From Myxococcales bacterium (GTDB taxonomy: Bacteria; Myxococcota_A; UBA9160; UBA4427), in the NCBI GenBank assembly GCA_022563535.1, contig JADFNE010000005.1, forward strand, positions 46,397 to 110,396: DNA of 64,000 bases, in the 5' to 3' direction. Within the stretch, counting starts at the first letter, position 1. Each line of letters starts with the position of its first letter. The notes below the pieces were generated by a model. It searched no databases and had not been told where the DNA came from. It worked only from the letters and a program-made list of their open reading frames with translations. Shown here piece by piece: positions 41,435 to 55,428 of this stretch. A program made the position numbers and the translations under genes.

Positions 41435-42199
41435 TCAGCGAAACAGGTCTTGTGAAGGAAGGCGCAGAAGGTCGCGGGTCTTGCCCGACCCCGATACGAT
41501 GATGCCCTCGACGAACACGGCGGGGATGCCCGAGTCCTTGACCATCAAGATGCCCGCGCCCGCGGCGATTTGATCGACCAGCGCAGTGGTCGTCGACTGA
41601 AGCTCGCGGCCCTCGAGGTCGAGACTGCCTCGGTGATCGATGATCGGCGCCATGCCGGCGCTTCCGATCGCGACGTCCACCAACCCCTCGCGCCACGGTC
41701 GGCCGAAGGTGTCGGTCACAACGACTCCGAGTTGTTCACTCCCGCGAGCGACCAGCGCTCGATGCAGTGCAGCGGCCGAAGCATCGCTGTCCAAGGGCAG
41801 CAGTACCGCGATGTCGTCTCCCAGTGAATTCGAGAGGTCGACTCCGGCGTTGGCACAAACGAAGCCGTGGTGGGTTTCGCTGATCATGATGCCGTGACCG
41901 CGTCGTACAATGCGGGCTGTTTCGCGCAATACGACCTCGACGTGACGCGGGTCTTTGTCGTCTTCTTTTGCAATCGTCTTGGCTTGTTCGCTCGGCTCCA
42001 CGTCGTTCAGGTCGACCAGTCGGTCTTCGGCTTTCGATACGATTTTTTGACACAACACGAGGATGCCCCGGCTCAAGACCACGCCCGAGCGTTCGGCGGC
42101 AGCGGCCAGGATCCCGGGCAGATCGTCGCCGGGCGAAATTTTTCCGATTCCCCGCAGTGCAATGAAGCGCAGTCCGTCGTCGCTGATTTCACACGTCAC
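41435..42199 (-). CDS. cofE: Coenzyme F420-0:L-glutamate ligase CofE
   Basis: ISPGDDLPGIL...VLCQKIVSKAEDRLVDL...RRGHGIMISETHHGFVCANAGVDLSN. Confidence 0.85.
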   Translation of the reverse strand: MTCEISDDGLRFIALRGIGKISPGDDLPGILAAAAERSGVVLSRGILVLCQKIVSKAEDRLVDLNDVEPSEQAKTIAKEDDKDPRHVEVVLRETARIVRRGHGIMISETHHGFVCANAGVDLSNSLGDDIAVLLPLDSDASAAALHRALVARGSEQLGVVVTDTFGRPWREGLVDVAIGSAGMAPIIDHRGSLDLEGRELQSTTTALVDQIAAGAGILMVKDSGIPAVFVEGIIVSGSGKTRDLLRLPSQDLFR

Positions 42200-42864
42200 T
42201 GCGCTCTACCTCGACCCCAGCCGAGGGCGTTGAAAATGTCGCGGGTCTGTTTGCCACCCCCGGTCTGGGCCATAAAGTCGTCGACATCTTCGGGCCGATC
42301 CAGATCGATCCAGAGAGACGGAAGGGAGAGTTCGCGGTACGGGATCCCGCGTTGTTTGGCTTGTTCGCGATGGGCTCGACAGCTCTGCGGACCAAAGCAA
42401 GAGGGGATCACGTCGGCTGGGGTGCGCAGAAGCGCTGCCGTGCCGCCATCGCGCGATGGTGCGAGCACGACCTGGCCACTGGTTGCCGGCGGATCCAGTT
42501 GTTGATCCTGCTGTTGATACAGACGCTCGAGTTCTTCGGGTAGCGCCCCCGCAACGTCGCCCAGAATCACCAGCGAACTTTCTCCAGCTGCGGCGAACTC
42601 GCGGGTGGCGGCGTCGATCGACTCGTTCAATCCCGGATCCGTGCGCAACAGCACGATTGCCCCCGCGGCGCGCGCGCATTCCGCAACCGATTCATCGGGG
42701 GTCACGACCGCGGTCCGATCAACGGACGGCGTTTCCTGTAGCGCCTGCACGATATCCCTCAACATGGCGAGACATAGATGCTCGAGATCGCTGCGTCCGA
42801 GTCGCGACGAAAGCCGCGTCTTTCCCAGGGAGAGATGTTTGACCGGAATGATCGCGAGACTCAT
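42196..42864 (-). CDS. cofC: F420 biosynthesis guanylyltransferase CofC/FbiD
   Basis: The ATG at 42864 overlaps the cofD stop (ATGA). MSLAIIPVKHLSLGKTRLSSRL...VVTPD...ILGDVAGALPEEL. The ORF's upstream extension is Arg-rich. Confidence 0.8.
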   Translation of the reverse strand: MSLAIIPVKHLSLGKTRLSSRLGRSDLEHLCLAMLRDIVQALQETPSVDRTAVVTPDESVAECARAAGAIVLLRTDPGLNESIDAATREFAAAGESSLVILGDVAGALPEELERLYQQQDQQLDPPATSGQVVLAPSRDGGTAALLRTPADVIPSCFGPQSCRAHREQAKQRGIPYRELSLPSLWIDLDRPEDVDDFMAQTGGGKQTRDIFNALGWGRGRAQ

Positions 42865-43868
42865 CGCAAACTCAGTGCCAGTTCGAGAGCAGTCGCGGCC
42901 AGCTGCGTCGAAATGTCGAGATCGGTCATCAACGTCTGTGTCGAGACCGCGCGCATTCCCAGTTCTTCTATGTCTGCGAGTTGGGCCGCATCCACTCGAT
43001 CGAAGACGAACCCTTGTGCGAGGTCTCGATACAGCCCGGCCACACCCAATGCAGAGACCTCGCAGCCGATGGCGCGAAGCAAGTGGTCCGCTGGCCCCTT
43101 TACCGGAGCGCCGCCGATGATCGGTGAGATTGCAACGACCGGAGCGCCCGAGTTGACAATGGCTTCGCGGATTCCTGGCACGGCCAGGATCGGTCCGATA
43201 GACACCACCGGATTGCTCGGGCAAATGATCACGATCTCAGCAGTCGCGATGGCAGCGAGAACTCCGGGTGCAGGGGTGGCGGCGCGCGCCGCGTCGAGAT
43301 GGACCGCGCGAACGTTCGCGGGAGATTTTTCTCGCACAAGATACTCTTCAAAGTGTAGACTGCGCCCGTCGTTCAATTCGACCAGGGTGGGGGCTGGGTC
43401 TTCGCTCATGGGAAGAATGCTGCAGCTCAGGCCGTGGGTTCGGCGCAGGCTTTCACTCAGCTGCGCAAGTCCATCGCCCGCGCGCATGCGCAGGGTACGG
43501 TGCAGGCAATGGGCAAAGTCGCGATCTCCGAGTCGGAACCAGGTTTCGTGTCCGAGGGTTCCGAGTTCTTCCATCAACGAAAAGGTGTCCCCGGCGAGTC
43601 CGAAGCCTTTGCCAGGGTCTACCGCGCCAGCGAGGGTGTAGGTCACGATGTCCAGGTCGGGGGCGACGTACACGCCATAGAACTCGCGATCGTCTCCAGT
43701 GTTCACGATCGTCGTGAGTTTCGCGGGGTCGGTCGCGCGAACCAGCCCACGCAACATTCGCGCCGCGCCGACGCCACCGGCCAGTGCCGCGACCCGGCCA
43801 GAGAACACGCGAACGGGTTCGATGTTGGTGTCGTCGGGGCTGGCCTTGTCAGCGTTCTGGGGGGGCAC
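42861..43868 (-). CDS. cofD: 2-phospho-L-lactate (LPPG:FO) transferase CofD/FbiA
   Basis: VAALAGGVGAARMLRGLV...IVNTGDDREFYGVYVAPDLDIVTYTLAG...ICPSNPVVSIGPIL. Confidence 0.85.
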   Translation of the reverse strand: MPPQNADKASPDDTNIEPVRVFSGRVAALAGGVGAARMLRGLVRATDPAKLTTIVNTGDDREFYGVYVAPDLDIVTYTLAGAVDPGKGFGLAGDTFSLMEELGTLGHETWFRLGDRDFAHCLHRTLRMRAGDGLAQLSESLRRTHGLSCSILPMSEDPAPTLVELNDGRSLHFEEYLVREKSPANVRAVHLDAARAATPAPGVLAAIATAEIVIICPSNPVVSIGPILAVPGIREAIVNSGAPVVAISPIIGGAPVKGPADHLLRAIGCEVSALGVAGLYRDLAQGFVFDRVDAAQLADIEELGMRAVSTQTLMTDLDISTQLAATALELALSLR

Positions 43869-44428: not shown

Positions 44429-44461
44429 GAAACCCGATCGAAACCCGATCGAAACCCGACG
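44429..44461. promoter_or_regulatory. Head-to-tail 11-bp repeat GAAACCCGATC x3 in a divergent intergenic region
   Basis: Copies at 44429, 44440 and 44451 (the last ends ..GACG). The array abuts the first candidate start (GTG 44461) of the 653-aa gene. Confidence 0.5.
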
Positions 44462-46422
44462 TGGATGAGGGCATCCGCGCTGGGCACGCTGAGAAGAGGG
44501 GGAGGAGTCGGACCGCGGTGGATACGTGTGAATCGAGTTACGAAAGAATTCCATTTTCCGGGGCAGGTCTCGAGCAGAGTTCTGCAAGGTGGCGAGGCGG
44601 AATCATCTGCACGATCGCGCTTGCGGCGTTCGCTTCGCTGGTATCCGCATCTCGGGTCAGCGCCCTGGTAGAGCCTGGCTTGGTCGGCGATTGGAACCTG
44701 GGCATGGCCGTGCAGGGGCAAATGGAACCCCGAAAGCCTGCGGAGGCGAGGGTCATCTGGCGTCGAAGTGACGACTTCAGTGGCCGGGGCGATGCGGGGT
44801 ACGTCGCGGTCGCCGCAGATTCGAGCCGAGGTTGGTTGGCCGTCGGGGGCGAAGCTGGTCTTTCGGTCGGCCGCCCACTTCGCGACCTGCGCGCCCGGTC
44901 ACTCGCGATGAAGGGAGTTCGCGACCTACGCTTCGGGGCCGGTGGCGAGTTGTACATCGCCACGACTCGAGGGTTCTGGGTTCTCCCAGCCCTTTCTTCG
45001 TCAGCCTTTGATGCTGGGAAAGTCAATCATCTTCAAGAATTCAGCCCTGGGAGGGGAGAGGGTTCGCGTCGGGTAAATCGGGTTGCGACGGGACCGGACT
45101 TCGTCGCACTGGCGACCGACGACGGTGTGTTCGTTTCGAGCCCTTGGAAAGCGAGCCACGACAACCCGGCACAAGCGCCGCGCCTGAAGTGGACACGCCT
45201 CAACGCAGGCTTTCCTAACGGTCCCGTCTCTCTTGTAGCGGTTGAGCAAAAAGAGGATGCGACCTACTTGTGGACTGTGGTGGGTCCCGCGCTGTGGCGG
45301 ATCCGTCTATCTACCAAGAGCACTACCAAGAGCACTACCAAGAGCACTACCAAGAGCACTACCAAGAGCGGTACTACGACCGCTACTATGGTCGCGGTTT
45401 CTGATCTTCGGGAAGTGGTTGTGCCCGGTCGAGTCCATGGCGAACTCCCGGTGGATCTCGTGGCAGACCTTCCCGCCGAAGGTGTTGCACTCGTTTATGC
45501 CGACTCGATCTTTTTTCGCAACCGCGATGTGTCCTCGGGGCGTCACGCGTGGGAGGTCGTGCGCCCAGTTCTGCCGCCGGGTAGTTCAATTGCGCGACTC
45601 GGACACTGGCGCGGACGCTATTGGCTGACGACTGATCGCGGGATTTTGCTTTCGCACTCTCTGGCTGGTCCCTGGCGAAGGGCCGAGCCGCCGGCGGGGC
45701 GCGCGTCCGCCCAAGCTGCAGCCGTCCTGGGCAGCCGCCTCTATGTTGCGAGCGCCGGGGGGTTGCTCTATGCCGAGCCGCTTCACGGCACCGCGGTTCG
45801 TGCGACGCGAACCCGAACGACGCGAGCGCCGTCCATCGTCGCCGTCCATCGCATCGCTCTTCGCCACCAGGGTCTCGAGCCCCGGGTCTTCAAGGATGCC
45901 TGGCGCGGAGTTCGGCGGCGGGGGTGGTTGCCTGCCGTCGGGCTGCGCCTGGGAGTAGATCTCGACACCGGGCGCAGCTCCGACGACGACGAGGTCTTCG
46001 TATCCGGCGACTACCACCTGCTGCGCGACAAAGACGAAGACCGAAGCCTCGATCTCGGCGCTTCGATCACAATGACTTGGGACTTTCGAGATCTCGCCTA
46101 CGAACCCGACCAGATCGATCTTTCCCGAGAGTCGCGTCTCGTGATCGGGTTGCGCGACGATGTGCTCGATGAGATCAATCAACTCTACTTCGAACGGCTG
46201 GCGATCCTGGGCGATCTCGCAGCACTGCGTGAAGGATCCGAGGGTGAGTCCGATTCGAGTGGCACCGACACCGCCGACGACTCCAAAGATCTCTCCGATC
46301 CATACGCCGCAGCCCAACTCATCGTCACCCTCGAGTTGCGTCTCGAAGAACTGACCGCCGGGCTCGACGCCTGGACGGGAGGTTGGTTCGGCAAACAACT
46401 CGAGTCATCCGTGTCTTACTGA
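44461..46422 (+). CDS. Secreted repeat protein, unknown function (BNR/Ycf48-like beta-propeller suspected) with internal TKST repeat
   Basis: Signal-like IICTIALAAFASLVSASRVSA. Recurring motifs YIATTRGFWV, LATDDGVFVSSPW, LTTDRGILLSHSLAGPW, YVASAGGLLYA. Exact start uncertain. Confidence 0.65.
   Translation: MDEGIRAGHAEKRGRSRTAVDTCESSYERIPFSGAGLEQSSARWRGGIICTIALAAFASLVSASRVSALVEPGLVGDWNLGMAVQGQMEPRKPAEARVIWRRSDDFSGRGDAGYVAVAADSSRGWLAVGGEAGLSVGRPLRDLRARSLAMKGVRDLRFGAGGELYIATTRGFWVLPALSSSAFDAGKVNHLQEFSPGRGEGSRRVNRVATGPDFVALATDDGVFVSSPWKASHDNPAQAPRLKWTRLNAGFPNGPVSLVAVEQKEDATYLWTVVGPALWRIRLSTKSTTKSTTKSTTKSTTKSGTTTATMVAVSDLREVVVPGRVHGELPVDLVADLPAEGVALVYADSIFFRNRDVSSGRHAWEVVRPVLPPGSSIARLGHWRGRYWLTTDRGILLSHSLAGPWRRAEPPAGRASAQAAAVLGSRLYVASAGGLLYAEPLHGTAVRATRTRTTRAPSIVAVHRIALRHQGLEPRVFKDAWRGVRRRGWLPAVGLRLGVDLDTGRSSDDDEVFVSGDYHLLRDKDEDRSLDLGASITMTWDFRDLAYEPDQIDLSRESRLVIGLRDDVLDEINQLYFERLAILGDLAALREGSEGESDSSGTDTADDSKDLSDPYAAAQLIVTLELRLEELTAGLDAWTGGWFGKQLESSVSY
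45313..45372 (+). repeat. In-frame 12-bp tandem repeat accaagagcact x4 perfect + 1 imperfect (encodes TKST repeats)
   Basis: Read directly from the sequence. The protein shows STKSTTKSTTKSTTKSTTKSGTTT. Confidence 0.9.
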
Positions 46423-46474: not shown

Positions 46475-47245
46475 GTGCGTAGGAATAGGAATAGAAGCGG
46501 TAATCGATACAGAGGGATGGGGAAATACGAAAGGGCGGGGTGGAGCGGAGTCTCGAGGTTTCCAGCGCGTTGGGTTCAGCAGCTGATCCTCCACGGGATC
46601 GTCGGTCTAGTCCTTTCTGTCGCCGGGGGCGCGTCTGCGACTCCCGTCATCTCCGAAGTCCTCTACGACGCCGTCGGCATTGACAACGGTTATACGTTTG
46701 TCGAAATCTATGGAGCCCCCGGAGAAGTGCTCGACGGCCTGAGCCTCGAAGGTGTAAACGGAAGTAACGGTGCGGTGGGGCCGATCATTTCCCTCAGTGG
46801 TGTCATCCCCCAGGACGGCGTGTTTGTCGTTGCCGACGTGAATGGGGAGGGGGTGACGATGGTGATCAACGCCGATCAACTCGCGAACTTCGACTTTCAA
46901 AATGGTCCCGACTCGATCGTCTTGCTGGAGGGAGGTGTTGTGATCGACGCACTTGGGTATGGCGTATTTTCGGCGGGAGACGTGTTCGCAGGGGAGGGGG
47001 CGCCCGCCGCAGATGCGCCGGCGGGTTCGAGTCTGGCGCGGCTGTTCGCCGATCTCGATCAGGACGACAATTCCCTCGACTTCTCGCCGCTCGGGGTTCC
47101 CACACCGGGGGAAGTGACGTTGCTCCCCGTGCCGGAGCCCGACAGCGCTCTACTCATGATGCTGGGCTTGCTTGCGATGAGTTCTCGCCTGCGGCCGGCT
47201 TCTACACGCGTGACGCGCAAGAACCAATCGGCGCGGCTCGAGTAG
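46475..47245 (+). CDS. Lamin-tail-domain (LTD) protein with PEP-CTERM sorting signal
   Basis: PVISEVLYDAVGIDNGYTFVEIYGAPGEVLDGLSLEGVNGSNG (LTD pattern). C-terminal VPEPDSALLMMLGLLAMSSRLR (PEP-CTERM). The true start is probably internal to the ORF. Confidence 0.7.
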   Translation: MRRNRNRSGNRYRGMGKYERAGWSGVSRFPARWVQQLILHGIVGLVLSVAGGASATPVISEVLYDAVGIDNGYTFVEIYGAPGEVLDGLSLEGVNGSNGAVGPIISLSGVIPQDGVFVVADVNGEGVTMVINADQLANFDFQNGPDSIVLLEGGVVIDALGYGVFSAGDVFAGEGAPAADAPAGSSLARLFADLDQDDNSLDFSPLGVPTPGEVTLLPVPEPDSALLMMLGLLAMSSRLRPASTRVTRKNQSARLE

Positions 47246-47750
47246 CCAGCGCTCCAGAAGCAGTGTCCCGCGGCCGCCGCGACGAGCGGGGTTGCCGGGC
47301 ACTGTGTCGAGTGACGATCAGAACGAGAGATGTGCGCCGGGAGAAACGCTGTCGAACATCGCCCCGGCCTTCTCTATTTTCGCGACTGTCGAAAGTTCGC
47401 CTCCAGTCGCGCGCGATGGGTCGCTAGGATTATTGGAGTGCGCAACGTGGTGATCCGAACCTGAACGTCGGCTTTGGGAGCGAGCGTTCCGTTACGCAGC
47501 ACGACCGCGACGCCGGTTGCATGCTCCAGTGTTTGCGGTGACTCGAATTCCGTCGTCGACTCTATTTTTTCAGACGCAAAATCAGGGTTTTTATGGGGGT
47601 GTACAGACTTGCGGTCTTCGTGTCGCGTATTGCGCGAAACATGCACACGATCGAATGAACGCGAGGAACGAAGTTTGGCTCGCTAGAGCCAGTCATTCGT
47701 CGCTCGCGGCCCAACCGGGTACAAATCACCCTGCGAAGCCTGAAGACTTG

Positions 47751-47779
47751 TTGAGTTTTGTTGGTAAGCGGCGTATTTT
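47751..47779 (+). promoter_or_regulatory. Candidate sigma-70-type promoter for the VTC operon
   Basis: TTGAGT, 17-bp spacer, TATTTT, located 72 bp upstream of ATG 47852. Each hexamer matches the consensus at only 4 of 6 positions. Confidence 0.25.
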
Positions 47780-47851
47780 GGGTACACGCGCGAAGCACTC
47801 GGAAACGTTGTTCCGCTACCAGGTTTGTGCTGCCCGTTGGAGTTGATATAG

Positions 47852-48724
47852 ATGGCTGTCTTCGAGGCTCGTTTCGAGCGGCTCGAGCTGAAATATCTGA
47901 TTGACGAGTCCACCGCAGATCGAGTGCGGCGCGATATCGAGCCGTTCTGTCGGCCCGACCCACACAACGCCAAGCGTCTCGTCAAACGCAACGCCGTAGA
48001 CAACGCCCAGAACATCGTCCGACATGACGTCGAAAACATCTTTGCACCGGTCAGCAATAAACCGAAAGAAGAGGTGGGCTACGGGATCAGTTCGCTGTAT
48101 CTCGACAGTCCGGGTCTTGTTTCGTTTTATGCCAAGGAGCGCGGCGACCCCGAACGACTGAAGTTGCGAGTTCGTACCTATCGCGATTCGCCGATCGCCG
48201 TTCTCGAACTCAAGCGCAAGATATCGGACGTCATCAACAAGACCCGGGCGAGTGTTGATCCCGCACACGTGGAGCGGATCGCCAGCGGTCGACTCCCCGC
48301 GGCATCGAATCCCGAAGTCGATCGATTCTTGAAAGACTTCGCAGTGACCTCGATGAGTTTGGGCGCCCAGCCGGTGCTGCACGTGCGTTACGACCGCGAA
48401 GCCTATTCGAGTGATGTCGACACCTACGCCCGCGTGACGTTCGACCGACGCATCGAAGTTCAGCGCGCCCACGGCTGGGATCCCGCTCCGGCTACGGAAG
48501 GCTGGTGTTCGTTCGATCGCTACCGGCGCCCGGACCTGCGTGACAAAAACATCGTACTCGAGCTCAAGTGTCAGTCATTTGTCCCGTGGTGGATCACAAA
48601 TCTGATCCGCACCCATGCGCTCAAGCGCCAGTCGTTTTCGAAATACGGGATCGGCATCTACCTGACAAGTAAGCTCAATTGGGAGACCTCGTTGCCGAGC
48701 CGCTCCGCGAGGGCATTGCTTTGA
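47852..48724 (+). CDS. VTC-domain (polyphosphate polymerase / CYTH-like tunnel fold) protein
   Basis: FERLELKYLI; ISSLYLDSPGLVSFYAKERGDPERLKLRVRTY; AVLELKRK; YARVTFDRRI; VLELKC. This is the pattern of bacterial VTC-domain proteins. Confidence 0.75.
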   Translation: MAVFEARFERLELKYLIDESTADRVRRDIEPFCRPDPHNAKRLVKRNAVDNAQNIVRHDVENIFAPVSNKPKEEVGYGISSLYLDSPGLVSFYAKERGDPERLKLRVRTYRDSPIAVLELKRKISDVINKTRASVDPAHVERIASGRLPAASNPEVDRFLKDFAVTSMSLGAQPVLHVRYDREAYSSDVDTYARVTFDRRIEVQRAHGWDPAPATEGWCSFDRYRRPDLRDKNIVLELKCQSFVPWWITNLIRTHALKRQSFSKYGIGIYLTSKLNWETSLPSRSARALL

Positions 48725-48747
48725 ACACCGACGTTCTGTTTGGACAA

Positions 48748-49413
48748 ATGGAGCAGACCATTTCCGGCGGCAGCTGGGTCGCACCTTTGACGGCCCTCGT
48801 GAGCGCGTTTGTGTTCGGTCAGGTGTTGGCTTGGACCTACGAGCGCACCTATAGCGGGCTGAGTTATTCGCGCGGCTTCAGTCATACCCTGGTACTGGTG
48901 TGCATCAGCGCTTCCATCCTGGTCCTGTCGATGAAATATTCGCTGATTGCGGGGCTGGGACTGTTCGGCGTGCTTTCGATGATTCGCTTTCGCACGGACT
49001 TGAAGACACCGCGCGATCTGGTCTTTGTGATGGGGGCCGCGTGTATCGGGGTGGCATGCGGGGTGGGAGCCATGATCGAAGCCTTCATGGGAGCCAGCGC
49101 CTTCGCACTCGTTGCGCTGTACCTGTTTCTCGGTCCGTTCGGTTCCAGGTCCCGCTTTGACGGCGTGTTGCGCTTTCAACTCCCCACCCAACTCGACTCG
49201 GACACCAGTCTCGCGCAATTGATGCGATTGCACTGCCGGCGGCTGCACCTGCTATCCACCGCCGATATCGAAGAAGGCACACAGATAGAACATGTTTATC
49301 AGGTGAAGTTCTTTCGTGAGCGCGATCGGGAGGACTTGCTCGCAGCGTTGCGTCAAGATCTGGGCGCGCTCGAAACACGCTTGATGCTGCAAGACGCATC
49401 GTCGGAGTATTAG
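48748..49413 (+). CDS. DUF4956-family membrane protein
   Basis: WVAPLTALVSAFVFGQVLAWTYERTY; LIAGLGLFGVLSMIRFRT..KTPRDLVFVMGAACIGVACGVG. Soluble C-terminal domain. ATG at 48748; an alternative TTG lies at 48679. Confidence 0.7.
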   Translation: MEQTISGGSWVAPLTALVSAFVFGQVLAWTYERTYSGLSYSRGFSHTLVLVCISASILVLSMKYSLIAGLGLFGVLSMIRFRTDLKTPRDLVFVMGAACIGVACGVGAMIEAFMGASAFALVALYLFLGPFGSRSRFDGVLRFQLPTQLDSDTSLAQLMRLHCRRLHLLSTADIEEGTQIEHVYQVKFFRERDREDLLAALRQDLGALETRLMLQDASSEY

Positions 49414-49418
49414 ACAAG

Positions 49419-50306
49419 ATGTACGATCGAATTTTAGCGACTCGACGCAGTGCACAACGGGGAATCGGCCGCGTCTTCGACGCATTTGGCGCGCGCCCAT
49501 TTGGCATATTGGTGTTTGCGCTGAGCATTACACTGCTCGTGTATCTGCAATCCGGCGTGGTGGGCGGCATTCGCGCCGATGCAGTCGCGGCTGCAGGATT
49601 GGTCGAGCAGCCTGCGCGCGTTTCGTCGTATGTCACGAAGGTCTATGTGCGTGCGGGTGACGCGGTGGACGTGGGGGCGCCGTTGGTGGATCTATCGCCC
49701 CACTTCATCGACCGAGAGCTCGGTCGGATCGACGCGGAATTCCAAAAGCTGTTGCACGAATCAAAGCTCGCCCAGGCCCGCTTGCTGATCAAAGAACAGC
49801 GCTGGCTGAACCCGCAGATGCGGCGGCGGCCAGACGGTCCCTCGCTCGAAACCCCCACGGAGGCACTCTACGCCAAGGAGTTGGCGGCGCTGCAGGTCCG
49901 CCGATCACAGCTGCTCGCAGACCGCGAGGCGTTGACGATCAAGGCGAGCCATCCCGGTCGCATTGCGCTGGTCGTCAATACCGGCAGCGCCGTAGGGAAA
50001 GGAAGCTCGGTTGCGTCGGTGAGCCCCGAGTACGCAGAGGAGATCGTCGCCTATGTGTCACCGGACATGCAGCCAGACCTGGTCGCTGTAGGGTCGACGG
50101 TGCATATCGCGCGTTCCTCGTTCGCGTGCAGCGGCGCGGCCAAGGTACTGCGGCGCGGCGCCACGGTGCAAGAGGCGCCGGGCCAGTTGGTCGGCCTGTT
50201 GCGCTTTCCGGTGCACGGGTTGCCGGTCTACATTTCGATTCCACCGGACTGCCAGCTCGGTGTAGGGCAGGTTCTCAGTGTCGAGTTCGCTCGCGCGGTG
50301 ATGTAG
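49419..50306 (+). CDS. HlyD / membrane-fusion-protein-like periplasmic adaptor
   Basis: N-terminal TM helix FGILVFALSITLLVYL. Barrel-sandwich motif VTKVYVRAGDAVDVGAPLVDL. Coiled-coil segment. Second half-barrel GRIALVVNTGSAVGKGSSVASV. Confidence 0.6.
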   Translation: MYDRILATRRSAQRGIGRVFDAFGARPFGILVFALSITLLVYLQSGVVGGIRADAVAAAGLVEQPARVSSYVTKVYVRAGDAVDVGAPLVDLSPHFIDRELGRIDAEFQKLLHESKLAQARLLIKEQRWLNPQMRRRPDGPSLETPTEALYAKELAALQVRRSQLLADREALTIKASHPGRIALVVNTGSAVGKGSSVASVSPEYAEEIVAYVSPDMQPDLVAVGSTVHIARSSFACSGAAKVLRRGATVQEAPGQLVGLLRFPVHGLPVYISIPPDCQLGVGQVLSVEFARAVM

Positions 50307-51529
50307 TGCGCGCAGTGTTGACCTTGCCCCATCGTTTACAAGTTTGTGTTCTCGTGTGTTTGTTCGCAGCTGCTTGCGCAACGCCCCCGGCGCCGCCCGT
50401 CGATCACGAGCAGCGTATCGAACGAGCCGCCGGCGAACTCCCTTACGATCCGATCGTACAGGCACATCGAGCCGCAGTGGAAGCCGCGCAGGCGAACGAG
50501 CAGCGACCCAAGCTCGTCGATCGAGTCGAGCTTCGCGCCGGCGAGGATTACCTGGCTAGTGAGCATCAGCTCCGGGCGCTCGCCCGGGTAAAGGTTCGGC
50601 ACCCGGCCGAGCTGCGCGCCGAGCGCAACGTGCTGCGCGCCCAAACTGAAATTGAGGTGGCGCGCCTCGAAGAAGCGACACTCAAGCGCCGAGTGGAAAT
50701 GTGCTTTCCGTCGGTCGACGCGCTGGTCCGCGCCCAACAGAACGAGATATTCACCGACTACACCCTGCGGCAGAAAATTCTGTTGGCTTGGAATGACACC
50801 TGGCTTGAGTCGGGCGTGATTGACGAGTTGAGCGGAGTCCGGTTCCGGCTCGACAGTCGGGTGAAACTCGCGGTTCGTCAACCACCCCCGAGTGCCGATC
50901 ACGCTCGCATCTCGATACAGCTTCCGGACATCGGCGCCGGCCCCGGCGAGCTGGTACGCAACCCCGAACATCTGCGCGCCACCGTGCGTCAACATCACCC
51001 TTCGGCAGGACTGCAACGCGCAACCGCAGATCGCTATCGACGGCTGGCCGAACGGGCCCGCGCGCGACGTCTACCGGGACTCCGGTTCGTCGATTTGTCC
51101 TACGAACACCGGACCGCATCATCGCGCAACGGAGTTGGAGGCCAGGTTGCTTTCGAGATTCCTTTTGGGGGCGAATCTCGAGCCGAGATCGCGCGCTACG
51201 ACGCGTTGATTCGGCAGCAACGCTTCGAAGGGAACGCTCGGGTCGAGGACCAGATCTCCCTGAGTCTCCAGGCGCTCAACGATGTCCACGACTTTGAATC
51301 GCGCCACGAACAATGGCGCGAACTCGAACGGCTGGCGGCAGCTGCCGAAGAGGTAGCCGACCGCTGGTGGAAGTCTCGGCTCGCCAAGCCCTCCCAGGTC
51401 TCAGCACTGCTAGACGATGCTTATTCGGCCAGAATCGCCGTCCTGGACGCCCGGGAACGCGCGGCCAATGCTCAGTGCACCCTGCTTTCGATGACAGGCG
51501 TCACCCTCGACGACTGGCCGCGAGAATAA
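50306..51529 (+). CDS. TolC/OEP-like outer-membrane lipoprotein (putative)
   Basis: Lipobox VLVCLFAACA. Long helical repeats resembling outer-membrane efflux proteins (RAERNVLRAQTEIEVARLEEATLKRRVE; ...AYSARIAVLDARERAANAQCTLLSMTG). The GTG at 50306 overlaps the upstream TAG by 1 nt. Confidence 0.5.
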   Translation: MRAVLTLPHRLQVCVLVCLFAAACATPPAPPVDHEQRIERAAGELPYDPIVQAHRAAVEAAQANEQRPKLVDRVELRAGEDYLASEHQLRALARVKVRHPAELRAERNVLRAQTEIEVARLEEATLKRRVEMCFPSVDALVRAQQNEIFTDYTLRQKILLAWNDTWLESGVIDELSGVRFRLDSRVKLAVRQPPPSADHARISIQLPDIGAGPGELVRNPEHLRATVRQHHPSAGLQRATADRYRRLAERARARRLPGLRFVDLSYEHRTASSRNGVGGQVAFEIPFGGESRAEIARYDALIRQQRFEGNARVEDQISLSLQALNDVHDFESRHEQWRELERLAAAAEEVADRWWKSRLAKPSQVSALLDDAYSARIAVLDARERAANAQCTLLSMTGVTLDDWPRE

Positions 51530-51543
51530 TCCCCCCCTGCTTC

Positions 51544-52719
51544 TCAGTCGCCGGGTGTCGAAGCCGGTAGACCCAGTTCTGCGAGCAGGGCCTCGCGGTG
51601 GCCGTCCAGGGCGGGAGCCGCAGGGCGACGCGTAGGATCCTCAACCCCCGAAATCTTGATCGGGTTGCCCGCCACCTTGAAGTCATTGAGCCCGGGTTCT
51701 TCGACGGGAACCAGCATGTTTCTGGCTCGGATCTGCGGATCTTCGAGTACCTGGCCGACATCTTGAATGGGACCGCACGGGATACCCGCTCGCGAGAGGA
51801 CGTCTAACCACCTTGCACTTCCCTGGGCGCGCAGGGTCTGTTCGAGTTCAGTCTTGAGTGCATCCTGATGCTGGGTACGCAGATCGTTGGTCGCGAAGCG
51901 AGCGTCTTCCAGGAGGTCACTGCGTTCGAGTGCCCGGCACAACGACAAAAATAGCGAATCATTGCCGGCGGCGATGACGAAGAATCCATCGCCCGTAGCG
52001 AAGCAGTCAAAGGGAGTGATCGATGGGTGGCGAGAGCCGAGCGGGGTCGGGACTTCCCCCGTCGCCTGATAGCGCGCCACGGCATTCTCGAGTATTGCGA
52101 CTTGGCAGTCCAGCATCCCGACGTCGATCTTTTTTGCTTCTCCGGTTTGCGCACGATGAAAGAGCGCAGCGTTGACTCCGGTGCATACAAAGAGCCCCGC
52201 CGTGATGTCGCCCATCGAAGTTCCCACCCGGGTGGGGCGGCTACTGCCCGGTTGCCCCGTCAGGCTCATGATGCCGCCCATCGCCTGCACGACCAGATCG
52301 TAGGCGGGTCGTTCTCGGTAGGGTCCCGTGTGGCCGAAGCCCGAGACGGCTGCATAGATGAGTTGAGGGTACCGCTGGTGCAGCGTTTCCCAGCCGTAGC
52401 CGAGTTTTTCCATCGTGCCCGCTCGGAAGTTCTCGACCAGTACATCCGCGCGTTCGAGCAGGGCTTCGAAGACCGCGCGGTCTGCTTGGTCCTTCAGGTC
52501 GAGGGCGATGCTCTCTTTGCCGCGGTTCAGCGATACGAAGTAGGCCGACTTGTCTTCGATGAAAGGACCGATGTGACGCGCGTCGTCGCCGCTGCCGGGT
52601 CGCTCCACTTTGATGATCCGCGCGCCCAGATCGCACAACACCATGGTGCAGTACGGCCCTGCGAGCACTCGAGTGAGATCGAGAACCGTGATACCGGCGA
52701 GAGGGCCCGCTCCACTCAT
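51544..52719 (-). CDS. Family III CoA-transferase (CaiB/BaiF)
   Basis: The ATG at 52719 gives MSGAGPLAGITVLDLTRVLAGPYCTMVLCDLGARIIKVERPGSGDDAR. The ORF's upstream extension overlaps the lpd promoter region and was rejected. Confidence 0.85.
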   Translation of the reverse strand: MSGAGPLAGITVLDLTRVLAGPYCTMVLCDLGARIIKVERPGSGDDARHIGPFIEDKSAYFVSLNRGKESIALDLKDQADRAVFEALLERADVLVENFRAGTMEKLGYGWETLHQRYPQLIYAAVSGFGHTGPYRERPAYDLVVQAMGGIMSLTGQPGSSRPTRVGTSMGDITAGLFVCTGVNAALFHRAQTGEAKKIDVGMLDCQVAILENAVARYQATGEVPTPLGSRHPSITPFDCFATGDGFFVIAAGNDSLFLSLCRALERSDLLEDARFATNDLRTQHQDALKTELEQTLRAQGSARWLDVLSRAGIPCGPIQDVGQVLEDPQIRARNMLVPVEEPGLNDFKVAGNPIKISGVEDPTRRPAAPALDGHREALLAELGLPASTPGD

Positions 52720-54537: not shown

Positions 54538-55428
54538 CTACGCCGACGTCGCGGCCACGTTACTTTGTGACGGTATGGACGCGGGCTCCACCTTGCGCAT
54601 GGCGCTGGTTCGCGGTTTCGAAGCCAGTAGCGATCGTCGCAGATCTTCGGGGCTCACCGGAGGGAGTCCCGCCTCTGTGGCGCGCTTGTGACAGGCTACG
54701 TAAATCGCCTGCTCCGAAAGTCGGCGAATTTCAATGCGGCCACCCTTGTTGACCGGATTGAACAGCGGCCCGGGCGCCACACCTCTTCGCGCCAGCCAGG
54801 CTTCCAATGCCAGCAGGCCTTCTCGATTTGCGGTGAAGCGACGGGGTGGCTTGGTGCCGTTGCCGCGGACGCAGATCGTGCTCGTGCGCCGATCGAAATC
54901 GGCGAGATCGAGCGCTGCAACTTCTGCGCGTCGCAGTCCGGCCCCAAATAGCAGGGCAAAGAGTGCTGAATCCCGTGGACCAGCGGGGGAGCGATCTTGC
55001 TCACACGCGGCGACTAGTGCTCGCAGTTCTTCCTGGCTCAAGGCCCTGCTCTTGCGAGGCGACGGGCCGGGGACCGCGGGAAGGTCGATTGCGCGCTGGT
55101 GGTCTTCAGCGGAGATCATGCCGAGGCGCCACACTTGCTTGAGAACACCGCGTAGCGCGGCGAGGTGCTTGTTCGCGGTAGCCGGCGCGAGCTCGCTGGC
55201 CAGTCGCGTTCGCAGTGCCGAAGTATGTTCGATGCGCAATGCACTCCACGGAAGAGAACGCATGTCACATCGCCCTTCTGACAAGTAACGGGCGATCTTC
55301 TGCAGGGCCTCGGTCATGGTTCTTCTCGAACCGGGACCCAATTGTGCGAGATAGAGTGCGGCCGGATGCTTGTCTTCCGGCGTTTCTCGTGCGAGTTCGA
55401 TGTCGCGAGACTCGAATCCGATGGTCAT
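54538..55428 (-). CDS. Tyrosine-recombinase/phage-integrase-like protein, apparently degenerate (no recognisable catalytic Tyr segment)
   Basis: SAM-like N-domain, then Arg-I box FGAGLRRAEVAALDL and VRGNGTKPPR. The HxLR box reads SPEDLRRS. The last 32 aa (LLASKPRTSAMRKVEPASIPSQSNVAATSA) have no LGH...Y motif, and I found none in the other two frames. Confidence 0.6.
   Translation of the reverse strand: MTIGFESRDIELARETPEDKHPAALYLAQLGPGSRRTMTEALQKIARYLSEGRCDMRSLPWSALRIEHTSALRTRLASELAPATANKHLAALRGVLKQVWRLGMISAEDHQRAIDLPAVPGPSPRKSRALSQEELRALVAACEQDRSPAGPRDSALFALLFGAGLRRAEVAALDLADFDRRTSTICVRGNGTKPPRRFTANREGLLALEAWLARRGVAPGPLFNPVNKGGRIEIRRLSEQAIYVACHKRATEAGLPPVSPEDLRRSLLASKPRTSAMRKVEPASIPSQSNVAATSA

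Follow-up and report, generated by a model that had tools for sequence, protein, structure and literature searches.

A compact unit of four genes occupies positions 47852-51529 of the window analysed here, by which we mean the whole stretch of 64,000 nucleotides taken from contig JADFNE010000005.1 of a Myxococcales bacterium (G+C content about 60%). The genes, hereafter called g1 to g4, combine a putative polyphosphate polymerase of the VTC type with a DUF4956 membrane protein, a periplasmic adaptor and a TolC-type channel, and we weigh below whether their products could form one envelope-spanning assembly in which polyphosphate synthesis is coupled to export. Their positions and lengths in amino acids (aa) are as follows.

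47852..48724, + strand: g1, VTC-domain protein, 290 aa.
48748..49413, + strand: g2, DUF4956 membrane protein, 221 aa, ATG start.
49419..50306, + strand: g3, membrane-fusion or periplasmic adaptor protein, 295 aa.
50306..51529, + strand: g4, TolC-type outer-membrane factor lipoprotein, 407 aa, GTG start.

The open reading frames (ORFs) and the sequences of their junctions bear out the arrangement given in a preliminary description of this DNA, with four co-directional genes, a gap of 23 nt between g1 and g2, a gap of 5 nt between g2 and g3, and one base shared by the TAG stop of g3 and the GTG start of g4; the sequence motifs quoted there are present as well. An alternative start of g2, a TTG at 48679, lies upstream of the ATG.

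The identification of g1 as a VTC-domain protein holds, as it matches PF09359 with an E-value of 3e-37 over profile positions 2-231 of 235, which is nearly the full length, and it carries no signal peptide. A profile of 35 homologues (44-77% identity) matched the catalytic domain of yeast Vtc4 (3g3q, E 1.5e-10) and retrieved from the PDB only yeast and other eukaryotic Vtc4/Vtc3 chains. In these 35 homologues R10/E12/K14, R106/R108, K130/R132, Y180/R182, R194, E237/K239 and S263/K264 are invariant. The tunnel residues on which catalysis by Vtc4 depends were reportedly described by Hothorn and colleagues in 2009 as K200, R264, R266, Y359, R361, R373, E426, S457 and K458, and every column aligned with one of them is invariant in the bacterial homologues. 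The aligned columns, for which the offset of the Vtc4 numbering was checked on chain 5iiq (native +3), are listed here.

g1 K14: Vtc4 K200.
g1 R106/R108: Vtc4 R264/R266.
g1 K130/R132: Vtc4 K294/R296.
g1 Y180/R182: Vtc4 Y359/R361.
g1 R194: Vtc4 R373.
g1 E237: Vtc4 E426.
g1 S263/K264: Vtc4 S457/K458.

Judged from these alignments, g1 is a candidate cytoplasmic enzyme of the tunnel-fold polyphosphate polymerase type, which would synthesise polyphosphate at the expense of ATP. As a separate observation, the window protein contains a loop insertion of about 20 residues, KRLVKRNAVDNAQNIVRHDVENIF (residues ~41-65, window 47972-48046), that is missing from nearly all homologues, which measure about 265 aa.

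The second product was expected to be a DUF4956-like polytopic membrane protein, and both its family match (PF16316, 48.5 bits against a cutoff of 30.6) and its hydropathy agree with this; PF16316 was also matched by 20 out of 20 g2 orthologues tested. From hydropathy and the positive-inside rule, g2 probably has five transmembrane helices with the N-terminus outside and the C-terminus inside, as well as a C-terminal domain of about 85 aa predicted to be cytoplasmic, and it is the sole polytopic membrane protein of the unit. Its conserved motifs (Y..T..GLSYSR.F, G.G..G...RFRT.LK.PRD and RFDG.LRF) are all located on the predicted cytoplasmic face. Half of the family members (10/20) show sub-threshold matches to MgtC (PF02308), the best reaching 23.3 bits against a cutoff of 31.4, so that a remote relationship to MgtC/SapB below the family cutoff is possible. 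A g2 profile searched against the PDB found no match and no solved relative.

For g3, family assignment by sequence and by predicted structure differ. The window protein itself scores below the cutoffs of HlyD_D23 (17.8 versus 30), HlyD_3 (18.6 versus 22.2) and TIGR01843 (23 versus 209), its Biotin_lipoyl score is also sub-threshold, and its profile retrieved only biotinyl/lipoyl-like stretches among PDB sequences. Its AlphaFold (AF2) model, in contrast, with a predicted local distance difference test score (pLDDT) of 81, was matched by Foldseek in the PDB to MacA (3fpp, E 6.6e-14), then to EmrA, AcrA, MexA and ZneB, with E-values ranging from 1e-13 to 1e-10 and MacA, EmrA, AcrA and MexA at probability 1.00. 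The model displays the adaptor architecture of membrane anchor, lipoyl domain, hairpin and beta-barrel: a conserved N-terminal cytoplasmic helix, one transmembrane helix at residues 27-46, a lipoyl domain that is split, an alpha-hairpin made up of residues 95-128 and 144-170, and a beta-barrel, without a membrane-proximal domain, as in EmrA and HlyD. Orthologues of the adaptor in loci L052, L084, L049 and L065 pass the HlyD_3 or HlyD_D23 cutoffs, long versions of the adaptor pass those of HlyD_3, HlyD_D23 and Biotin_lipoyl_2, and precomputed assignments to PF25919 or PF25984 exist for many g3 homologues. The membrane-fusion protein family proposed for g3 in the preliminary description is supported by predicted fold and by distant orthologues, the sequence scores of the window protein itself being below cutoff, and mainly on the strength of the model we regard g3 as a putative membrane-anchored adaptor of the HlyD/EmrA/MacA type.

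The long adaptors (583-723 aa) possess an added C-terminal Phytase-like domain (PF13449), which presumably lies in the periplasm.

L071 11454-13508: long adaptor of Sorangium cellulosum So ce26, PF13449 above cutoff, alone among the long versions.
L056 7051-8811: long adaptor of Bdellovibrio bacteriovorus, PF13449 below cutoff.
L052 11459-13510: long adaptor, PF13449 below cutoff.
L065 6999-8771: long adaptor, PF13449 below cutoff.

In L005 (6694-7875, - strand) a related stand-alone DUF3616 protein is encoded divergently beside the unit.

The TolC/OEP-like nature of g4 is upheld both by PF02321 (OEP, 30.5 bits against a cutoff of 22, in the C-terminal repeat 2 only) and by Foldseek matches of its AF2 model (pLDDT 87.8) to TolC (7ng9, E 1.2e-12), followed by OprM, CusC, CmeC and VceC, each over about 415 columns. 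In the model two repeats, each of a beta-hairpin plus long helices, can be recognised, with helix 100-169 spanning 70 residues. Comparison by hhalign with an OEP-positive orthologue group containing both repeats gave 99.4%, distant g4 orthologues pass the OEP cutoff, and the g4 sequence profile found no match in the PDB. Mainly by its predicted fold, matched over the full length, g4 may therefore be called a TolC-type outer-membrane factor. The lipobox noticed earlier is present, as VLVCLFAAACA: a hydrophobic N-terminus is followed by AAAC, in which Cys24 is invariant in 40 homologues, a lipoprotein export signal as found in the OprM/NodT subgroup.

The four genes are near-obligate companions. 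Three metagenome neighbourhoods (VTC identity 72%, 63% and 51%) contained the same four genes in different surroundings, and a VTC-seeded scan with one genome per species yielded 254 relatives, of which the best 80 were fetched. In total, 83 distinct loci were examined by ORF calling, iterated hidden Markov models (HMMs), all-against-all clustering and Pfam spot checks. In 69 of the 83 the sequence extends far enough, and 68 of these 69 contain DUF4956, the adaptor and a directly adjoining fourth gene whose product is exported, distributed as follows.

Fourth gene TolC-like: 48 loci.
Fourth gene for a signal-peptide protein of ~385 aa (Bdellovibrionota): 15 loci.
Fourth gene Porin_O_P: 5 loci.
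Contig end before the fourth gene: 14 loci.
VTC without partners: 1 locus.

The linkage has survived changes in gene order, which in Bdellovibrio reads g2-g3-X-g1, with stop and start codons that overlap, and in L078 g2-g3-g4-g1, and a single contig of a metagenome-assembled genome (MAG), JAJDAN010000003.1, carries two complete paralogous units about 30 kb apart (L010 and L027). Carriers, as labelled, include Myxococcota such as Sorangium cellulosum So ce26, Bdellovibrio, Bacteriovoracaceae, Halobacteriovoraceae, Oligoflexia and Bradymonadia, and further Opitutales and Puniceicoccaceae (Verrucomicrobiota), Lentisphaerota and spirochaete MAGs. In the reverse test, which started from adaptor-specific peptide patterns and covered 42 metagenome loci, g1 and g2 precede the adaptor gene and g4 follows it wherever the contig is long enough. 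The sole exception, L120 6001-7510, is a truncated adaptor (residues 19-237) running directly into a truncated TolC-like gene (residues 118-406), with no VTC or DUF4956 within 6 kb, and probably represents either what is left of a decayed unit or a product of misassembly. With more than 100 independent loci showing it, the arrangement is not due to chance. When all neighbouring ORFs were clustered, CotH alone recurred, and neither a further widely conserved family nor an ABC, RND or MFS gene came to light. The apparent g2-g3 fusions that had come up were discarded after clustering, being artefacts that arose because the iterated HMMs had contaminated one another and because high-GC DNA yields long shadow ORFs. 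The identity of g3 and g4 and the conservation of the arrangement beyond this contig were the two points on which the preliminary description expected that its idea might fail in silico, and on neither was it refuted.

Orthologous loci also offer clues to what the assembly might carry. Six loci of one Myxococcota clade have, immediately behind the gene for the adaptor, a Porin_O_P gene (PF07396; Pfam E-values 5e-48 and 5e-50) in place of the TolC-like one.

L026 8247-9701: Porin_O_P.
L028 8063-9448: Porin_O_P.
L024 9673-10997: Porin_O_P.
L022 3039-4178: Porin_O_P.
L025 5725-6836: Porin_O_P, frameshifted.
L116 5608-6857: Porin_O_P.

To the Porin_O_P family belong OprP and OprO of Pseudomonas, outer-membrane channels specific for phosphate and pyrophosphate that serve uptake and are induced by phosphate starvation (PMC9769906). 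The exchange of the outer-membrane part for a protein of an unrelated family provides independent evidence for a phosphate-type anion crossing the outer membrane. Ahead of the Pfam match, the porins in question are extended at the N-terminus by a charged segment of some 80-95 residues, and we speculate that it reaches into the adaptor sleeve. The fourth gene of the Bdellovibrionota loci (L055-L085, e.g. L056 8811-9974), which we refer to as BdX, encodes a signal-peptide protein of about 385 aa without a Pfam family; hhalign related it to the TolC-like groups with a probability of only 38-46%, and it cannot be called an outer-membrane factor.

Another clue is provided by CotH kinases: at least one lies within 10 kb in 23 of the 86 VTC-seeded locus records, a set that contains duplicates, and in 13 of the 42 adaptor-seeded loci. 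These CotH neighbours begin with a signal peptide or lipobox, followed by an LTD domain, and examples are the following.

L006 13696-16149, - strand: CotH kinase.
L026 10808-12619, - strand: CotH kinase.
L092 8139-10631, - strand: CotH kinase.
L108 8182-10053, + strand: CotH kinase.

No CotH gene was found in the 64-kb window. Association of CotH with VTC and DUF4956 has been recorded, as an uncharacterised one, beside Gram-positive exopolysaccharide pel loci (Whitfield et al., 10.1101/768473), and the exported nature of the CotH neighbours suggests an extracytoplasmic destination.

Taking these lines together, we find one reading best supported and give it about an even chance, namely that the unit is a machine in which polyphosphate synthesis is coupled to export through one envelope-spanning assembly. 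In this mechanism g1, positioned on the cytoplasmic face of a g2 oligomer, would assemble a polyphosphate chain inside its tunnel from the gamma-phosphate of ATP, in the manner of yeast Vtc4, and the growing chain would pass the inner membrane through g2. The g3 protein would form a periplasmic sleeve linking g2 to the g4 channel, and the polymer would reach the cell surface or the medium without an ABC, RND or MFS pump, the push coming from polymerisation itself. The predicted topology fits, with g1 lacking a signal peptide, the motifs and soluble domain of g2 facing the cytoplasm and the cytoplasmic helix of g3 being conserved. That the cluster contains no ABC, RND or MFS gene, as noted before, was confirmed by a survey of flanking genes and families; no such transporter is present in the unit and none recurs in the 83 loci. 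The polyphosphate synthesis and export machine envisaged in the preliminary description has thus gained comparative and structural support, whereas we infer polymerase activity, the role of g2 as conduit, the protein-protein contacts and the outward direction of transport.

Several points weigh against this mechanism. DUF4956 has no known transport function and its sole detectable remote relative by sequence, MgtC, is a regulator and not a channel; moreover, the periplasmic loops of g2 are very short in the predicted topology, so that any contact with the adaptor must lie within the membrane. At the position of a Thr in Vtc4, the bacterial family retains Glu12 from the ancestral ExExK motif, and the chemistry of g1 could therefore differ. 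As known uptake channels, the Porin_O_P substitutes support a phosphate-type solute and not a direction, and how the adaptor would dock on a porin is unexplained. Neither in the g3 nor in the g4 family is there a net positive charge of the kind that would suit a polyanion, the median net charge of mature g4 being -8; the net charge and isoelectric point of g3, g4 and BdX have no consistent positive bias, which by itself speaks neither for nor against a polyanionic cargo. Finally, for VTC or DUF4956 proteins of bacteria neither biochemical nor genetic evidence came to light in the literature searched, which agrees with the earlier statement that bacterial VTC and DUF4956 pairs are functionally uncharacterised, and in searchable papers we found no description of a VTC-type export route in bacteria.

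Foremost among the alternatives is that the unit fills a periplasmic polyphosphate store, the adaptor and channel merely exchanging inorganic phosphate, pyrophosphate, short chains or counter-ions with the outside and no polymer being extruded. The periplasm is the topological equivalent of the vacuole lumen, and eukaryotic VTC fills a storage compartment (PMC12526157). A Porin_O_P channel, which can replace the TolC-like part, is suited to phosphate and pyrophosphate and not to long chains, and the adaptor's Phytase-like domains could act in the periplasm on a compound rich in phosphate. Nevertheless, assemblies of adaptor and TolC are sealed ducts that bypass the periplasm, a general property carried over here to folds that are predicted, a TolC-type channel is present in 48 of the 69 informative loci, and the PEP-CTERM or lipoprotein signals of the exported CotH/LTD neighbours hint that the target lies on the cell surface, so that we regard a store as unlikely.

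Somewhat less probable still is that the tunnel-fold enzyme makes or cleaves another triphosphate, or hydrolyses ATP or triphosphate, and thereby energises DUF4956 for export of an unrelated substrate along the duct of adaptor and TolC-like channel, an alternative already raised in the preliminary description. Tunnel-fold (TTM) enzymes use diverse triphosphate substrates (PMC4641920, PMC9582702), and both the retention of Glu12 in the bacterial proteins but not in Vtc4 and the lack of relationship between DUF4956 and the Vtc1-type channel domain could be read in this way. Yet g1 matches specifically the VTC family, with the residue set of the polymerase invariant, three independent phosphate-linked features (Porin_O_P, the Phytase-like domain and CotH kinases) recur in orthologous loci, and no candidate gene for making a different cargo is conserved nearby.

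We think it improbable, more so than either of these, that the unit serves import or salvage, with phosphate, pyrophosphate or polyphosphate entering via the channel and DUF4956 and the VTC-like enzyme binding, cleaving or using the chain (for instance, polyphosphate + ADP -> ATP). Adaptor-linked TolC-type channels are generally known as exporters and Vtc4-type enzymes only as polymerases, the conserved neighbours include neither a periplasmic binding protein nor a Pst-like component, and the association with CotH would be left unexplained; in favour of import stand the starvation-induced uptake function of the OprP/OprO relatives (PMC9769906) and the Phytase-like domains, which suggest scavenging of external phosphate compounds. 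Coincidental adjacency, in which g3 and g4 would belong to an ordinary efflux pump with its transporter elsewhere and VTC and DUF4956 would be unrelated neighbours, could appeal to the generic efflux-pump folds of g3 and g4 and to JGI annotations that name g3 homologues AcrA or multidrug efflux subunits, but is effectively excluded by linkage in 68 of 69 informative loci from several phyla, in three gene orders and with overlapping or near-abutting ends, by the finding of the g3 family only beside g1 and g2, and by the paralogous pair of complete units on one MAG contig.

Returning to coupled synthesis and export, the exported polyphosphate might in addition act as phosphoryl or energy donor for exported CotH-family kinases outside the cytoplasm, where ATP is not available. 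We hold this as a long shot, and polyphosphate-fuelled extracytoplasmic phosphorylation would explain the trio of CotH, VTC and DUF4956 in Gram-positive biofilm loci.

The proposed machine resembles several known systems in part. With the eukaryotic VTC complex (Vtc4/Vtc3 or Vtc2/Vtc1) it has in common the catalytic Pfam family and the Vtc4-aligned tunnel residues as well as the pairing of the enzyme with a small membrane protein, and the logic proposed to be shared is that synthesis is coupled to moving the chain out of the cytoplasm through a membrane. The unit differs in that it has no SPX domain and g1, with PF09359 as its only domain, is a separate soluble protein not fused to the three-helix Vtc1-type PF02656; g2 is not a member of PF02656 either but a DUF4956 protein with probably five helices and a cytoplasmic domain, remotely MgtC-like. 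Furthermore, Glu12 is retained at the position of the Thr of Vtc4, and two more proteins extend the path through the periplasm and outer membrane. The unit may thus function in the way of VTC, but it does not belong to that complex.

In concept, the proposed machine is closest to synthase-dependent exopolysaccharide secretion, as in alginate (Alg8-Alg44-AlgK-AlgE) and cellulose (BcsA-B-C) biosynthesis, where polymerisation at the inner membrane drives translocation, Alg44 possesses an adaptor-like periplasmic domain and a dedicated outer-membrane channel receives the chain. Unlike these systems, the unit would make an inorganic polymer and would do so with a soluble tunnel-fold protein instead of a membrane glycosyltransferase; no c-di-GMP receptor domain is present, and the outer-membrane part is TolC-type.

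An anchored lipoyl-hairpin-barrel adaptor and a TolC-type trimeric channel are likewise common to the unit and to EmrAB-TolC (MFS), MacAB-TolC (ABC) and HlyBD-TolC (type I secretion), and g3 resembles EmrA and HlyD in its N-terminal transmembrane helix. These tripartite exporters contain an ABC, MFS or RND transporter, whereas the inner-membrane partner here is DUF4956 with a polymerase; the adaptor and channel of the unit are also short and small, with marginal sequence similarity, and in some lineages a Porin_O_P or an unrelated-looking signal-peptide protein takes the place of the channel. In the loci with porins the comparison with OprP/OprO extends to the position of g4, which is held by a TolC-type protein in the window, but the known porins serve uptake and are not paired with adaptors (PMC9769906). 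The Gram-positive CotH-VTC('PPP')-DUF4956(-DUF4832) genes that accompany pel (10.1101/768473) share the VTC and DUF4956 pair, the link to CotH and the context of a cell-surface polymer. That version has neither an adaptor gene nor one for the outer membrane, as is to be expected of cells that lack this membrane, whereas CotH is facultative in the loci of the present unit and the window contains no pel genes.

Bacterial polyphosphate is attributed to PPK1 and PPK2, and we know of no machinery that brings polyphosphate to the bacterial surface or medium. In a 2025 review VTC is the eukaryote-type and PPK the prokaryote-type polyphosphate polymerase (PMC12526157). If the proposed mechanism is true, bacteria would have a second, VTC-type route to polyphosphate with a product destined outside the cytoplasm, and the unit would be the first adaptor and outer-membrane duct powered by a polymerase instead of an ABC, MFS or RND pump, joining two known kinds of machine, the VTC-type synthase-translocase and the tripartite duct. 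DUF4956 would gain a testable role and the CotH-VTC-DUF4956 association a rationale; if CotH kinases do draw on the polymer, there would be an extracytoplasmic phosphorylation economy fed by a secreted inorganic polymer. Cultivable carriers exist in Bdellovibrio and Sorangium, and, with predatory bacteria among the carriers, ecological roles come into question, metal chelation, attack on prey and matrix building among them.

The unit stands alone in the window, with 606 nt of non-coding DNA before it and a convergent CoA-transferase gene that ends 14 nt beyond g4. The annotated surroundings, none of whose flanking genes is a transporter, are given below.

41435-43868, - strand: F420_ligase (CofE), CofC and CofD genes, families of F420 biosynthesis, unrelated to the four-gene unit.
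44461-46422, + strand: ORF without Pfam family, 653 aa, with a tandem peptide repeat (TKSTT x5).
46475-47245, + strand: LTD-like PEP-CTERM protein, 256 aa, with a signal-anchor-like N-terminus, the motif VISEVLYD...FVEIYG and a PEP-CTERM sorting signal.
47246..47851, + strand: non-coding stretch upstream of g1, 606 nt, assigned to the unit by position only.
54538-55428, - strand: phage-integrase-family gene, 3 kb downstream of the unit.

The 606-nt stretch 5' of g1 presumably holds the promoter or regulatory region of the operon. It contains no ORF with a family assignment; scans of 47200-51700 found no promoter-like or sigma-70-like site and fewer terminator-like sites than the shuffle expectation, and Rfam gave no match over the whole window including this stretch. 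NCBIfam returned nothing above cutoff and PADLOC no match, the latter giving no support for a defence system. The 653-aa ORF is conserved solely in the closest relative (L001 453-2237) and is not a CotH protein. The exported LTD-like PEP-CTERM protein 606 nt 5' of g1 shares the LTD theme with the CotH neighbours of other loci. Further flanking genes encode the CoA-transferase and a flavoprotein disulfide reductase, and the downstream order of CoA-transferase, flavoprotein reductase and integrase is also found in L001. One protein of the window is 100% identical to hypothetical protein IH881_03165 of a Myxococcales MAG.

Invariant cysteine pairs were observed in three of the four proteins, namely C33/C240 in g1, C237/C278 in g3 and C133/C391 in g4 (window protein numbering), and those of the periplasmic g3 and g4 may form disulfides.

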